64,000 nt of DNA. Origin: a virus (Duplodnaviria > Caudoviricetes). Below the pieces are notes generated by a model. That model was given only the letters and a program-made list of their open reading frames with translations, ran no database searches and had not been told where the DNA came from. The position numbers and the translations under genes are program-made. The DNA is taken from the IMG/VR virus record IMGVR_UViG_3300032281_000616, positions 1 to 64,000 of that record; one strand, written 5' to 3'. Shown one piece after another: positions 6,997 through 11,482 of this stretch; position 1 is the first letter of the stretch; every line of letters starts with the position of its first letter.

Positions 6997-9840
6997 TTAC
7001 CATTGCATCACTCTCTCCATAGCATCATATCTATCCTGACTATAAGATCTAGATGGGTCCACATAAGGCATTGCTCCATTCAGAGGCATCCAGCCTTCAG
7101 CAAATAATCCAGCCATTTCATCATCAGCTTCTCCAAATGCACCAAAAGCCATTGGAGATAGATTAGAATTCTCGATTTTATCAACTTGTTCATTTGTATA
7201 GATAGATGTTGGATTTTCAAACATCTTTATACCGTAATTATATGGAGTTATCTTAGCGGGTTTACCATAATCATCTTCTTCATCGATTTCGAAATACATT
7301 TGTGTGATTTCTCGATGTAAAATCATCAAAGCCCAAACAAATGCCATAACACGGTCATCATGTTCACCACCTTTAGCTTTCCATGTAGCGTTTGGATATC
7401 TAATAAATGTTTTGAATTCATTCAAGGTATGAATTGATCTGAATGTTACGTTTCTGATTTCATTAATGAAATATCTCTGATTTAAAATAGCAGCATGTTT
7501 AGTATTGGTATGAGATAATACTCCAAACTGTTGATTTTTGTGTGCTTGTTTCGCACCCCATGACACAACCTTCTCATAGGCAAAATCCATTGCTAATCTA
7601 TCACAAACTTGACCACCTTGGTTATTTCTTTCAATTAAAACTAATGGACTTCCCCAATTTAGGAGAATATCATGTAATTTATTAGAGAATTCTGCTGGGG
7701 CTATAGTATTACTATGATATTCAGCAACTTGTCTGATATCTTTGAGATCAGTAATGTCTAGCATTTGAATTACAGAGGCATCTCCACCAACTCCTTCAGA
7801 TACATCGACACCCGCCACGTATAATCTTGATGGATCTGGATCTTCCCAAATTTTATAATGACCATCATCTAGTAAATGCTTGGGTTCCGAACAGTTTTTC
7901 TTCAATTCATCGAATAATTCAACATCGATAGCTGAAGTTCCATCATCTGCGAAGTGACATTCATATTCTTGGGCGAATGCTTCATATGAACCCAGTTTGG
8001 CTATTTCTTTGCGCTTCCACTCCTCATCACGACCGGGAATTTCTGTCCACTGAACTTCTTCTGGGTGAAACTCATTCCACTCAGGAGTTCCCTCTTTTAA
8101 TGCCGCCGAATAAAAAGTATGAAATATATTATTTTTACCCTTCGGGGTTGATGTTATTAGGATTTTTGATGTTTTGGCTCTGGAAATCGTTGGTATAACC
8201 GAACGAACAAAGTCTTCCACAATACTCTGAGGTTCCAAATACGAAAATTCATCCAATAATAAACATTGATGACTGACAAAACCATTGGTGATATATTTAA
8301 AATTTTCAGATGCTACAATATCATACACTTCTGTCATCCCCCCATCCTCAATTTTCACAACTTCTTCGTATCCACTCTCAGTTTTTAACTGATCTCCAAC
8401 TTGTAACCCCGATACTGGTATTTGTACATCGTTATATGTGAAAAAAATATGATCTTTGGTTATGCTGACGGATCTTTTAGTAGTAAAAACTTCCACACAT
8501 TCTCGAACTCCGTTACTGATTACATTTTTAAACTTTTTGAACCCATCATCGGTCAATATTTCAACCTTATTATTATGAATCGGGCTGTAATCGATATGCA
8601 TTATTTCTGGATATGACTCCGTATACATCTTCTTTAAATTCAGAAGCTTTTCCTTGGCCCTTTTCTTTTTCTGCGCCACGGTATCCCAAATTATAAGCAA
8701 TTTATATCCCTTATCTGTCAAATAATCATATTTTACTATATCTTTATCGATATGTTTTTGAAACAGGTGATGTTTTTCATTTATTTCGACTATAAGTTTC
8801 TCCCCCACCAAAGCATCACAGACAAATGGGCCGATTCTTTTAGAATATTCTATGTCTTCATCCAGTATTTCGAATCGAACCTTTAAAAGCTCTAATATTT
8901 TTAACTCATTTTTACCAATATTTGTTTTATATGTATTATTGGAATTGTTCGACAACCTTCTGTCTATATGTTCGAAATATCTATTTGAACATCGAGTCCC
9001 ACAGGTTTCGGGATACTTTAATAAATAATCATTAAATACCACTTTTTTCGTATTACAAACTACACAGTGAGGAGATTCTTGTAAATTATTCACGAACCTA
9101 TATGCGGCAGCTAATTTGGATTCTTTTCCATCCCAACCTATGTGATCAGTATAATTTCGAAAACTATTCAATGTTTGACGGGTCTGCTCTTCCTTATTAA
9201 GTCTTATTTCAAACATTAGAATATTGTCTCGTATCAATCTACATTTATCAATGTCTGACATAAGAATGAATTCCTCAATTATATTAAACCTATCCAAACA
9301 TTGCACATATGCGAACTTCGGCTGAAATAATTTTCCGTTTTTGTTTATTATTGCTTGTTTTGTTTTTGAAAAATTTAAATAAAATATTCTCGTTCTGATA
9401 GATGGATTGAATTCATCGAGATACTTTGTATCGTTCATCAAATATTCTAAAATATATGGATGTTTTTTGACATTGCTTATGGCTGATGCCGATTTAAAAA
9501 ATGTTCTTAGCTGCTCATCATTCAACTTACTCAAATCAAACTGTTCATATAAAGTATCACTATATCCGAGTTCAAATGATAGATATCTATAATTTCTCCC
9601 CTTTTCAGAGTTGCTGGGTATTTCTCGAATATCATTGAAATAGTGATATGCCCGTTGACCCATCTCTTTTCTCAAAAAATGATCATCTAAATATGATGTC
9701 TTTTCTTTCAATTCATCATACAAATGTGGATATTTTTTAAATAATGTATATATACTATTTGATTTTTTGCTATCCTTGTATCGGTCAAACACAAAGTCCA
9801 GATCTATAGAGTTGCTCAATCGTCGTTTCATATATAGCAT
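6997..9840 (-). CDS. gp17: terminase large subunit, C-terminal part, preceded in frame by a Vsr-like endonuclease region and split-intein IntC
   Basis: CLLLDEF Walker B, ITSTPKG, AQEYEC, GVDVSEGVGGD and HDDRVMA terminase motifs from aa 526. Confidence 0.9.
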   Translation of the reverse strand: MLYMKRRLSNSIDLDFVFDRYKDSKKSNSIYTLFKKYPHLYDELKEKTSYLDDHFLRKEMGQRAYHYFNDIREIPSNSEKGRNYRYLSFELGYSDTLYEQFDLSKLNDEQLRTFFKSASAISNVKKHPYILEYLMNDTKYLDEFNPSIRTRIFYLNFSKTKQAIINKNGKLFQPKFAYVQCLDRFNIIEEFILMSDIDKCRLIRDNILMFEIRLNKEEQTRQTLNSFRNYTDHIGWDGKESKLAAAYRFVNNLQESPHCVVCNTKKVVFNDYLLKYPETCGTRCSNRYFEHIDRRLSNNSNNTYKTNIGKNELKILELLKVRFEILDEDIEYSKRIGPFVCDALVGEKLIVEINEKHHLFQKHIDKDIVKYDYLTDKGYKLLIIWDTVAQKKKRAKEKLLNLKKMYTESYPEIMHIDYSPIHNNKVEILTDDGFKKFKNVISNGVRECVEVFTTKRSVSITKDHIFFTYNDVQIPVSGLQVGDQLKTESGYEEVVKIEDGGMTEVYDIVASENFKYITNGFVSHQCLLLDEFSYLEPQSIVEDFVRSVIPTISRAKTSKILITSTPKGKNNIFHTFYSAALKEGTPEWNEFHPEEVQWTEIPGRDEEWKRKEIAKLGSYEAFAQEYECHFADDGTSAIDVELFDELKKNCSEPKHLLDDGHYKIWEDPDPSRLYVAGVDVSEGVGGDASVIQMLDITDLKDIRQVAEYHSNTIAPAEFSNKLHDILLNWGSPLVLIERNNQGGQVCDRLAMDFAYEKVVSWGAKQAHKNQQFGVLSHTNTKHAAILNQRYFINEIRNVTFRSIHTLNEFKTFIRYPNATWKAKGGEHDDRVMAFVWALMILHREITQMYFEIDEEDDYGKPAKITPYNYGIKMFENPTSIYTNEQVDKIENSNLSPMAFGAFGEADDEMAGLFAEGWMPLNGAMPYVDPSRSYSQDRYDAMERVMQW
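8266..8628 (-). mobile_element. IntC half of an atypically split TerL intein, ending in His-Gln
   Basis: VEILTDDGFKKF, SITKDHIF (block B), EVYDIV (block F), YITNGFVSHQ/C (block G, Cys+1). Confidence 0.85.
8680..9080 (-). mobile_element. Vsr/DUF559-like homing endonuclease domain fused to IntC
   Basis: CVVC...CGTRC zinc motif, then CDALVGEKLIVEINEKHH...KD..K..YL...GYKLLIIWD; boundaries approximate. Confidence 0.7.
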
Positions 9841-11482
9841 TATTTAGTCTGACTGTGACATTTGTGTTAGCGTTAACGCAATTGATAGTTTGTCCCCGCG
9901 CTGCTGAACCAGTCGTGGTGGAAATACCTATAAGACTACCGTTAGCAAATTCTGAACTTTCTTGCCCCCAAGTTACAACAGCGGGTTTTAACCATATGGG
10001 AAGTTCTTGATAAGCTAATTTGACCCGTTTAAAGATCATCTTCGCAGTATCTTCTTTGTTTGCCACGATTACAGTATTTTTATAATCATGGAAACACGTA
10101 TACCATAGTGCCAAGATCGTTAACACCGTGGTATTGTGGGTTGGAATATTTGTCCTTCCACATAAAAATAGACTATCAGGTGAATCTACGGTAATGCACC
10201 TCACTGGAACCGACTCAACTTCTTTTATCTCTTTGATATAATGCCATTGATTCCTTTTATTTGATTCTGGAGTTGATATTTCATTAATTATAATTCTATC
10301 CTTTTTGAAAGGTAGTTTACAAACATATTCTCTTGGTTTAAACTCTAATACTCCACATTCTTTACACTCTATACCATATAATGTCGGTATTTTAGTTTTG
10401 AATGTTGTTTTATACCCCAAACTCTCAATCAATTCTTTAACTTGATGGCATAATTGAATATTGGTGTTGTAAAAATTACAATTTCCTGATTTATCAACAT
10501 AACCATCAGAATCTATCAAACCCATCAATAATTCCAATCTTTGATCTCTAGACCCCAATAGGTATTCTGGTGGTATATGTTTATTTCCAATCAAATTAGA
10601 CTGTCTGAGTTCTTTATGTAAAGAAGTCTTATATTTCTCATTCCGATCATTTTTTCCTAGATTAATAGAATAAATATTTCGATTTTTGTGATATTGGATA
10701 TTGATACCGTATCGATCTTTATATTTTTGCAAATTATTAACAGTTTCCTTTAGATCTCTAGTCCCTGATGTGATTCTCGACCCGTCTGTTGCCCCGTCAC
10801 CCAACCACATTCCAAGAATATACGGATCTATAATGTAATCCTTTTCACTATTTTCCAACCCTTGCACGCAAGAAGGAATTCTATAAAAAGGTTCTCCTGC
10901 TTTTGTCGTGTGATCACCCAACATCTCCTTAGTAGTTTTTACACTACCTTCTTTATTTTTTCGATTTCTGTCATTTTTCGATTGAACGAACCAATTATGA
11001 TCAGCATCCGCCACAATTTCTTCCCCATTATCAAATATAACAGAATAACATTTCCTATCATAGAGAATTTCATGAGCCTTTACGACACGACAAATTTTTC
11101 CATCTATACCATACAATTCATCCCCATCCTTTAATTCACCTATGGTTGTCCATCCATTTGGGGTATTAATTGGAGTATCCAAGGCTAATGCTTTTCCACT
11201 TTGACGACTTGACAATACGATATTGAATCGATGGTCTTTAAAAGCTTTTAATAACCTTAACTGATAGGGTAATAAAGGAATCAACACTTTACCCAAATCC
11301 GGTTCAATTATGTAAAAGTAATTCTGTGCAAAATAAACAAGATCGTTCTTACACTTCTCAATCTCCAAAGCCATCTCTGGAGTGTATTCAAACTTAGCAT
11401 CTTGGGATGGTAAATTTGGATTACCTAAATACATCTCCTTCTTGGATAATTTGGGTTCTTTAATTTTAGATAGTCTAGGCAT
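9785..11482 (-). CDS. gp17: terminase large subunit, N-terminal part, with a cis intein and split-intein IntN
   Basis: YLGNPNL, YFAQNY, LLPYQ, SRQSGK/TT Walker A interrupted by an intein, ARGQTIN followed by IntN. Confidence 0.92.
   Translation of the reverse strand: MPRLSKIKEPKLSKKEMYLGNPNLPSQDAKFEYTPEMALEIEKCKNDLVYFAQNYFYIIEPDLGKVLIPLLPYQLRLLKAFKDHRFNIVLSSRQSGKALALDTPINTPNGWTTIGELKDGDELYGIDGKICRVVKAHEILYDRKCYSVIFDNGEEIVADADHNWFVQSKNDRNRKNKEGSVKTTKEMLGDHTTKAGEPFYRIPSCVQGLENSEKDYIIDPYILGMWLGDGATDGSRITSGTRDLKETVNNLQKYKDRYGINIQYHKNRNIYSINLGKNDRNEKYKTSLHKELRQSNLIGNKHIPPEYLLGSRDQRLELLMGLIDSDGYVDKSGNCNFYNTNIQLCHQVKELIESLGYKTTFKTKIPTLYGIECKECGVLEFKPREYVCKLPFKKDRIIINEISTPESNKRNQWHYIKEIKEVESVPVRCITVDSPDSLFLCGRTNIPTHNTTVLTILALWYTCFHDYKNTVIVANKEDTAKMIFKRVKLAYQELPIWLKPAVVTWGQESSEFANGSLIGISTTTGSAARGQTINCVNANTNVTVRLNNAIYETTIEQLYRSGLCV
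9788..9880 (-). mobile_element. 31-aa IntN of the atypically split TerL intein
   Basis: CVNANTNVTVRLNNAIYETTIEQLYRSGLCV then stop; resembles the short AceL-TerL-type IntN (CV..DT.V......IE.LY). Confidence 0.8.
10133..11191 (-). mobile_element. class 3 intein with LAGLIDADG endonuclease (353 aa) in terminase Walker A
   Basis: Ala1 (ALALDTP), DADHNW, VRCITV, IPTHN/T; ILGMWLGDG and LLMGLIDSDG motifs. Confidence 0.88.

Follow-up and report, generated by a model that had tools for sequence, protein, structure and literature searches.

The gene for the large terminase subunit, gp17 (TerL), of a freshwater T4-like phage of 202 kb (IMG/VR record IMGVR_UViG_3300032281_000616) is carried by two overlapping open reading frames (ORFs), between which an intein is divided. 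We analyzed the first 64,000 nt of this record, hereafter termed the window (all coordinates follow its numbering; the gp17 locus lies on the minus strand), and conclude that gp17 is probably a "fractured gene": a mobile class 1 intein with an atypical split interrupts it immediately ahead of Walker B, and the two gp17 halves would be rejoined in trans. The anatomy of the locus and how far it is conserved, the assignments of fold and family, and a recombination patch surrounding the element are directly supported. The locus belongs to a conserved, widespread mobile family and is a variant of both the fractured gene and the atypical split intein.

ORF1 encodes the N-terminal part of gp17 and ends, in this order, with ...GSAARGQTIN, a 31-residue N-terminal intein fragment (IntN) and a stop codon (Table 1). 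IntN opens with Cys-Val-Asn and displays the pattern of intein block A followed by a short helix (...TIEQLY), with a conserved core of about 27 residues ending ...IEQLY. ORF2, in the +1 frame relative to ORF1 and overlapping it by 56 nt, encodes in a single frame a homing endonuclease, the C-terminal intein fragment (IntC) and the C-terminal part of gp17. The endonuclease is composed of a helical N-terminal region, a Cys4 knuckle and a Vsr-like/EDxHD nuclease core. IntC carries the motifs TKDH (block B) and VYD (block F) and ends with SHQ, Gln525 being encoded at 8268-8266; Cys+1 (C526, 8265-8263) then opens CLLLDEF (Walker B), followed by the remaining gp17. Host N-terminal part with IntN, endonuclease, and IntC with host C-terminal part are thus arranged in this order on one strand at one locus. 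The initial annotation of this DNA had described a gp17 broken before Walker B, a 31-residue IntN, an overlapping ORF in another frame, a zinc finger and Vsr-like nuclease in one frame with IntC, and an intein terminated by Gln, and all of these were recovered here.

Table 1. Features of the gp17 locus and DNA identity to the locus with an uninterrupted gp17 (L019), in window coordinates.
Feature	Coordinates	Strand	Description
ORF1, gp17 (TerL) N-terminal part	11482..9785	minus	565 aa; phrog_36964 terminase large subunit, E 1.7e-81
Second intein, at Walker A of gp17 (SRQSGK-A...THN-T)	11191..10133	minus	contiguous; LAGLIDADG domain (Pfam LAGLIDADG_3, E 1.1e-10)
IntN	9880..9788	minus	31 codons; Cys1 9880-9878; TGA stop 9787-9785
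CTAAATA	9847-9841	minus	late-promoter-like gene-start motif within IntN coding sequence, adjoining first ORF2 ATG
ORF2	9840..6997	minus	947 aa; endonuclease, IntC and gp17 C-terminal part, single frame
Homing endonuclease part	9840..8611	minus	ORF2 residues 1 to ~410
Cys4 knuckle	9066..8989	minus	C259, C262, C280, C284
Vsr-like/EDxHD nuclease core	8907..8683	minus	part of ORF2 endonuclease
IntC	8604..8266	minus	ORF2 residues ~413-525 (~113 aa); blocks B, F, G; end His-Gln
C-extein	8265..6997	minus	Cys+1, Walker B (CLLLDE), rest of ATPase domain, gp17 nuclease domain
Mosaic patch	~11420..7750	minus	both inteins and ~1 kb of flanking extein DNA; 65-83% identical to L019
Identity to L019	upstream of ~11420		97-100%
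Identity to L019	11422-11192		65-77%
Identity to L019	between the two inteins		72-83%
Identity to L019	8265-7916		68-73%
Identity to L019	7915-7741		84-92%
Identity to L019	downstream of ~7740		98-100%

The C-extein matches Pfam Terminase_6N and Terminase_6C and aligns with the uninterrupted gp17 of phage phiM9 and with the relative P0073. In the alignment to phiM9 gp17, the break falls within the core of the ATPase, after the arginine finger and ahead of Walker B. RG.S.N/H-x-(I/L)LLDE spans the insertion point both in phiM9 gp17 and in a near-identical relative without intein, so that removal of the element restores the arginine finger and Walker B region.

The covalent association of endonuclease and IntC was examined by an exhaustive profile search of 1.84 billion cluster representatives with the endonuclease part, which returned 55 hits. 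All 12 near-full-length hits are N-terminal parts of endonuclease-IntC-terminase proteins of a common build, in which the endonuclease is followed by an IntC ending with H(N/Q) before Cys and then by Walker B and the terminase; among these hits, P0018 and P0025 stop inside the endonuclease. None of these 12 is a free-standing protein of ~400 residues, and the shorter hits share the knuckle and nuclease module only and resemble ordinary free-standing endonucleases. The fusion is kept down to about 25% identity, in at least 14 clusters at 50% identity (11 with the whole endonuclease), and all 14 family members read from endonuclease into IntC without a stop codon. The linker that leads from the final strand of the nuclease to the opening strand of IntC contains a conserved aromatic motif and no conserved Met, and in an AlphaFold2 model it forms a helix (393-409) continuing into the first IntC strand. 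We conclude that the predicted endonuclease-IntC fusion is the rule in this family and a stable architecture.

IntC and the terminase C-terminal part could nevertheless be made separately as well, or instead, by initiation near Met405 or Met414 or by proteolysis, leaving the endonuclease as a free-standing enzyme. Met414 lies about where two endonuclease-less relatives (P0102 and P0103) begin their IntC, and the fractured genes described in 2009 have a separate endonuclease ORF, often overlapping IntC (PMC2677866). However, neither Met405 nor Met414, both of which had been suggested as starts of IntC, is conserved in even the closest relatives, and no CTAAATA-type motif precedes them; the uninterrupted frame of all family members and a linker conserved as protein and modelled as a helix likewise speak against separate production, which we regard as improbable.

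A related layout was observed in a cultured phage, Vibrio phage Va1 (MK387337.2; L014 652-4069), in which gp17 is split at QNFE-C with a 32-residue IntN. There, a 762-residue ORF overlaps the IntN ORF by 29 nt and carries a zinc ribbon and Vsr-like endonuclease in frame with an IntC that ends with HN before Cys, followed by the terminase nuclease domain; the record labels the two ORFs "putative DNA packaging protein" and "putative terminase". Because Va1 has the fusion at QNFE-C, the endonuclease-IntC layout is neither specific to the Walker B site nor confined to metagenomes. The locus had initially been interpreted as a possible snapshot of the origin of atypical splits. The fusion that prompted this interpretation is real; the notion of a snapshot is not supported, since the arrangement is stable down to about 25% identity and occurs in Va1. 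A second weak profile match to the Cys4 knuckle (E 2.2e-5) was noted outside the window, at 106436-106615 of the genome, within a 533-residue ORF.

Examination of relatives, as the initial annotation had recommended, revealed the two-ORF design in at least nine other metagenomic lineages with 25-53% identity. Loci L001, L002/L003/L006 and L004/L005 show 44-53% identity, and L007, L008, L010 and L012 about 25-31%. The design is seen in the window, L001, L002/L006, L004, L007, L008, L010 and L012, with a relative frame of +1 (window, L001, L002, L006, L004) or +2 (L007, L010). In the window clade, the ORF2 frame opens within the IntN coding sequence with an overlap of 56-110 nt, the first ~45 ORF2 residues are conserved in the ORF2 frame, and the ORF1 tail following ...LY.SGLC differs in length. 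A spacer of 34-35 nt, containing a stop in the ORF2 frame, separates the two ORFs of L007 and L008 (relative frame +2 or +1). IntN and IntC are thus encoded by separate ORFs, as in a naturally split intein. Searching the locus by megablast against GenBank phages gave 0 matches; a single-sequence scan of viral contigs found no relative, whereas an alignment-based scan found one.

How ORF2 might be started was addressed by inspecting all 26 CTAAATA occurrences in the window. Seventeen have an ATG within 14 nt (nearly always 5) opening an ORF of at least 60 aa, gp18 and gp19 included; as its own gene-start motif, the phage uses (C/T)TAAATA with an ATG 5-6 nt further on. Among public runs, none of RNA was listed as containing this DNA. 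ORF2 has two candidate ATGs, at 9840 and 9831, respectively 0 and 9 nt from its CTAAATA; the L001 clade shares the 9-nt ATG, and L004 and L008 carry ATAAATA-N6-ATG at the corresponding place. ORF2 would accordingly possess its own late-type start, probably the ATG at 9831. The earlier suggestion that a TAAATA inside IntN drives ORF2 is plausible, CTAAATA-N5-ATG being the usual gene-start motif of this phage. The T4 consensus TATAAATA was considered as the start signal of the window and rejected, as it is not enriched (8 found vs 12.7 expected). It is to be noted that (C/T)TAAATA with exactly 5-6 nt before ATG is found at most gene starts on both strands (e.g. 5603, 6224, 11498, 11900, 13294, 20128), a spacing in which a leader or Shine-Dalgarno sequence would hardly fit, which suggests that the late messages of this phage may be leaderless or near-leaderless.

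The initial annotation had also raised the alternative that a programmed +1 frameshift, here within the 56-nt overlap, joins the two ORFs into a single cis intein with the endonuclease after its first helix. The +1 frame common to the window, L001, L002, L006 and L004 would suit such an event, ORF1 of the L001 clade ends with CTT TAA A, which we take to be similar to the shift site of release factor 2, and the existence of a contiguous in-frame relative, P0024, indicates that a cis form is viable. Yet the position and context of the ORF1 stop vary by clade (GTT TGA C, CTT TAA A, TCT TAA A), no Shine-Dalgarno-like stimulator lies upstream of it, the ORF2 frame opens with an ATG right after a gene-start motif, and the relative frame of L007 and L010 is +2. 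Moreover, the ORFs of L007 and L008 can be joined by no single ribosomal shift because their spacer holds a stop in the ORF2 frame. This layout, together with stop contexts that vary within the window clade, rules out a conserved programmed frameshift as the family's mechanism, and we consider a frameshift very unlikely at the window locus.

The residues expected of a functional split intein are conserved. Cys1 is invariant in all seven IntN pieces aligned, following RG.(S/T).N, and among 14 sequences H464 (block B), D507 (block F) and C526 (Cys+1) are invariant and H524 is present in at least 90%. Within the family, the intein terminates with Gln in P0024 and the window clade and with Asn in most other members. 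The Gln end had been singled out as atypical; it is indeed present, as a variant already known from inteins able to splice, namely Pab and Mma PolII and CIV RNR (PMC4031507). By phmmer against PDB, IntC matched VidaL (6vgv, 1.9e-6) and CatC (6dsl_B, 3.3e-4). An AlphaFold2 model computed from the 14-sequence alignment had a mean predicted local distance difference test score (pLDDT) of 81.5, and its IntC portion (residues ~413-525) matched the VidaL, gp41-1, DnaB and Cat inteins in Foldseek with probability 1.00. IntN alone had no match in PDB; it aligns with the two strands and first helix of the AceL-TerL and GOS-TerL IntN, and its 31 residues fit the short-IntN class (15-35 aa). With the S2 position defined as a short IntN ending after the first helix (PMC13014065), the intein is, on sequence and modelling grounds, assigned to class 1 with a HINT fold and an atypical S2 split, in agreement with the atypically split terminase intein initially proposed by reference to AceL-TerL and GOS-TerL. 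The Walker B element is an allele related to, and distinct from, the Cat-like allele.

Conservation of the endonuclease is comparable. E312, D342, E355, H358, D367, K370 and the four knuckle Cys are invariant across the same 14 sequences at about 25% overall identity, and Pfam DUF559 matches the nuclease domain in 11 of the 14 members (best E 2.2e-6). The single nuclease sequence retrieved I-Bth0305I (3r3p) as its best PDB match, albeit weakly (E 0.025), and the modelled fold gave 3r3p_A as the top, likewise weak, Foldseek match (E 6e-3, probability 1.00, template modelling score 0.59 by target), with 1cw0 and 1vsr next in rank. When a profile built on the entire endonuclease was searched against PDB, 3r3p was not recovered and the one match was at chance level. 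E312, D342, H358 and D367 can be mapped onto the catalytic residues of I-Bth0305I through a short alignment. As nuclease and splicing residues are both invariant at about 25% identity, we argue that both activities are under selection.

A complex of IntN, extended by 15 extein residues, with the endonuclease-IntC protein was also modelled. Its ipSAE (interaction prediction score from aligned errors) was 0.71, against 0.00 for the best of three controls; of 80 solved complexes, 58 attained that mark, as did 2 of 110 mismatched pairs. The Cat (6DSL) and VidaL complexes have already been solved, and the score may reflect likeness to them. The runs had at least 86% of contacts in common, with a partner pLDDT of at least 69. 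In the model, IntN contacts IntC residues 423-443, 503-508 and 516-526, and its hairpin also contacts knuckle residues 267-288. The touching of the IntN hairpin by the Cys4 knuckle raises the possibility that the nuclease domain may aid or gate split-intein assembly.

Alternatively, the intein could be dead and the terminase halves could form a non-covalent complex held by the intein pieces, as does the intein-less split NrdA of phage Aeh1. Functional split enzymes that do without splicing are known (PMC2677866, PMC3045599), and the Gln end is unusual. However, every splicing residue is kept across relatives with about 25% identity, the break falls inside the ATPase core between arginine finger and Walker B, and Gln-ended inteins do splice (PMC4031507); a dead intein appears very unlikely. 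Finally, a one-base assembly or sequencing error splitting a single real ORF, for which no supporting point was found, can practically be dismissed: in a check made on assembled contigs, the contig of another assembler (run X1, 43x word depth, probably from the same sample) was identical to the window over 9400-10200 with 0 differences, including the 9780-9845 segment whose verification had been advised, and the split recurs in many independent metagenomes and assemblers.

We propose the following sequence of events for the trans-spliced fractured gene. ORF1 would produce the terminase N-terminal part extended by the ~30-residue IntN. ORF2, starting within the IntN coding sequence from its own CTAAATA-type signal, would produce one polypeptide comprising the endonuclease (DNA-binding region, Cys4 knuckle and Vsr-like/EDxHD nuclease), IntC and the terminase C-terminal part. 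IntN would dock into the near-complete IntC, and trans-splicing employing Cys1, the block B Thr-x-x-His, the block F Asp, His-Gln cyclization and Cys+1 would join ...RGQTIN to CLLLDEF... to give an intact terminase, freeing IntN and the endonuclease-IntC protein. The latter would then act as a homing enzyme, presumably cutting intein-free gp17 alleles of co-infecting phages, after which the element would be copied in along with flanking extein DNA. Several points weigh against this scheme. Splicing, the ORF2 start, and the activity and target of the nuclease are inferred from sequence; a C-terminal Gln slows some inteins (PMC4031507); the frames overlap in the window clade, which leaves room there for a rare +1 shift; the 0 or 9 nt between CTAAATA and ATG at ORF2 depart from the usual 5-6; and the recombination patch described below holds two inteins and is not assignable to one nuclease, ordinary recombination producing a similar picture.

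States of the Walker B insertion site were gathered by a search with the C-extein. The empty state is represented by P0073, an uninterrupted gp17 of 602 residues (locus L019), and the split state with fused endonuclease by the window and its two-ORF relatives. A split state without endonuclease is found in P0102 and P0103, in which IntC has its own Met, and a contiguous state, on a single contig, in P0024 (L016), where IntN, nuclease domain and IntC are in one frame. Comparison of the window with L019, from an intein-free sister phage, delineated a mosaic patch around the two inteins, flanked on both sides by nearly identical DNA (Table 1), and the junction codons read TIH-V in the empty allele (P0073/L019) vs TIN-C in the window allele. 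Judging from these alignments, the patch has the co-conversion-like pattern expected from homing and would point to recent mobility. Further features of P0024 were noted: in L016 2060-5095 (P0072, P0024), the nuclease domain is the only part of the endonuclease between IntN and IntC, the intein ends with Lys-Gln before Cys without a penultimate His, and a further intein with an atypical split divides the gene at Walker A as well (again on this single contig).

As a tentative extension, which we hold to be possible and somewhat less probable than not, this one Walker B site may display a life cycle (empty, split with nuclease, split without nuclease, re-fused contiguous). The endonuclease would have become the N-terminal domain of IntC after the first helix, which would explain the "atypical" split sites, and the AceL-, GOS- and Cat-type inteins would be endonuclease-less descendants.

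The closest precedents are the fractured genes, in which split inteins are accompanied by an intervening homing endonuclease gene and which, in the original description (PMC2677866), include a gp17-like terminase locus from Lake Gatun with an unusual break point. The window locus shares with them the order host N-part with IntN, Vsr-like endonuclease, IntC with host C-part, as well as a phage derivation and late-promoter-like elements ahead of the endonuclease; the Lake Gatun terminase intein likewise has an IntN limited to motif N1 and a long, 122-residue IntC. In the fractured genes as described there, however, the endonuclease is a free-standing ORF that follows a non-coding stretch of 27-51 bases and in many cases overlaps IntC in a different frame, whereas in the window it starts inside the IntN coding sequence, is in frame with IntC and is thus not free-standing. 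The gene-breaking model of the same source contains a hypothetical step IIIa in which an in-frame endonuclease arises via lost flanks (PMC2677866). The window family corresponds to half of this step, which appears completed on the 3' side in the window family and on both sides in P0024. Vsr-like and GIY-YIG endonucleases were stated in 2009 not to be known inside inteins (PMC2677866). A 2025 preprint lists Vsr-like endonucleases as partners of split inteins, citing the 2009 work, and otherwise solely on the anti-sense strand of inteins from actinophages (10.1101/2025.01.02.630785). The literature searched, which did not include several key subscription papers, yielded no account of a protein with a Vsr-like endonuclease in frame with IntC.

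The inteins AceL-TerL, GOS-TerL and consensus Cat (6DSL) interrupt the same host protein and have a short IntN and near-complete IntC. AceL-TerL and GOS-TerL are split after the first helix, at S2 (PMC13014065), and AceL has Cys1 and Cys+1 as the window intein does. They differ in that the Cat-like allele occupies the site QEF.-C, where the ATPase domain ends, and the window intein the one before Walker B, and in that the AceL, GOS and Cat tools have an IntC of ~104 residues without endonuclease, in contrast to the fused endonuclease and Gln end of the window intein. VidaL (6VGV), the best IntC match by sequence and fold, is split after strand 2 (S1) with a 16-residue IntN (PMC13014065), as opposed to S2 and 31 residues in the window. 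I-Bth0305I (3R3P) is the prototype of the EDxHD family of Vsr-like homing endonucleases, which came to light in fractured genes (PMC2677866, PMC3239194). The window endonuclease has in common with it the E...D...H...D composite residues and a DNA-binding part at the N-terminus followed by a nuclease at the C-terminus; I-Bth0305I is the product of a group I intron, whereas the window enzyme has a Cys4 knuckle and is joined covalently to an intein half. Lastly, in canonical maxi inteins (LAGLIDADG or HNH), splicing domain and homing nuclease are one polypeptide after excision, as in the window element. There, the intein is contiguous and its nuclease separates block B from block F, while in the window element a Vsr-like nuclease follows the first helix and the intein is split at the N-terminal side of the nuclease.

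The family thus offers natural intermediates for the 2009 gene-breaking model, with a Vsr-like endonuclease in frame with one intein half and, in one relative, with both, and it links the point of endonuclease insertion to the unusual place at which the short-IntN inteins in wide use are split. At least 12 diverged atypical split inteins with Cys1 and Cys+1, with or without nuclease and ending with Asn or Gln, are candidate orthogonal trans-splicing tools. For annotation, terminases of such a build are now called as two unrelated genes.

Additional inteins were observed in gp17 of the window and its relatives. The second intein of the window gp17, at Walker A, has Ala1, a Trp after the block B His, a Cys in block F and Thr-His-Asn before Thr, features that by sequence are those of class 3 (WCT); it is absent from L001, L004 and P0073. 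In L004 (6680-6810; C-terminal end of P0006 and N-terminal end of P0010), a second atypically split intein interrupts QEF.-C with an IntN of ~26 residues; its ORFs are 41 nt apart without endonuclease, its IntC matches CatC at 1.4e-15, and its position, where the ATPase domain ends, probably corresponds to the site of AceL-TerL and GOS-TerL. Among P0011, P0014, P0017, P0023 and P0015, several end in a further short IntN, located post-Walker-B (LDEAAFID-CLKGNT...) or at QEFE-C, and because of this extra C-terminal IntN the terminases of several such members consist of at least three pieces; in P0015, the post-Walker-B site is occupied by a contiguous mini-intein. ORF2 residues 377-532 are also matched by Campylobacter phages and kutterviruses. 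In the one Kuttervirus record consulted, the match was rejected as an instance of the same element, as Salmonella phage 38 (L015 1468-3677) instead has a contiguous Walker A mini-intein, RQSGK-C...SHN-T, 27% identical to IntC; its terminase is annotated as two coding sequences with a break after QEFG.

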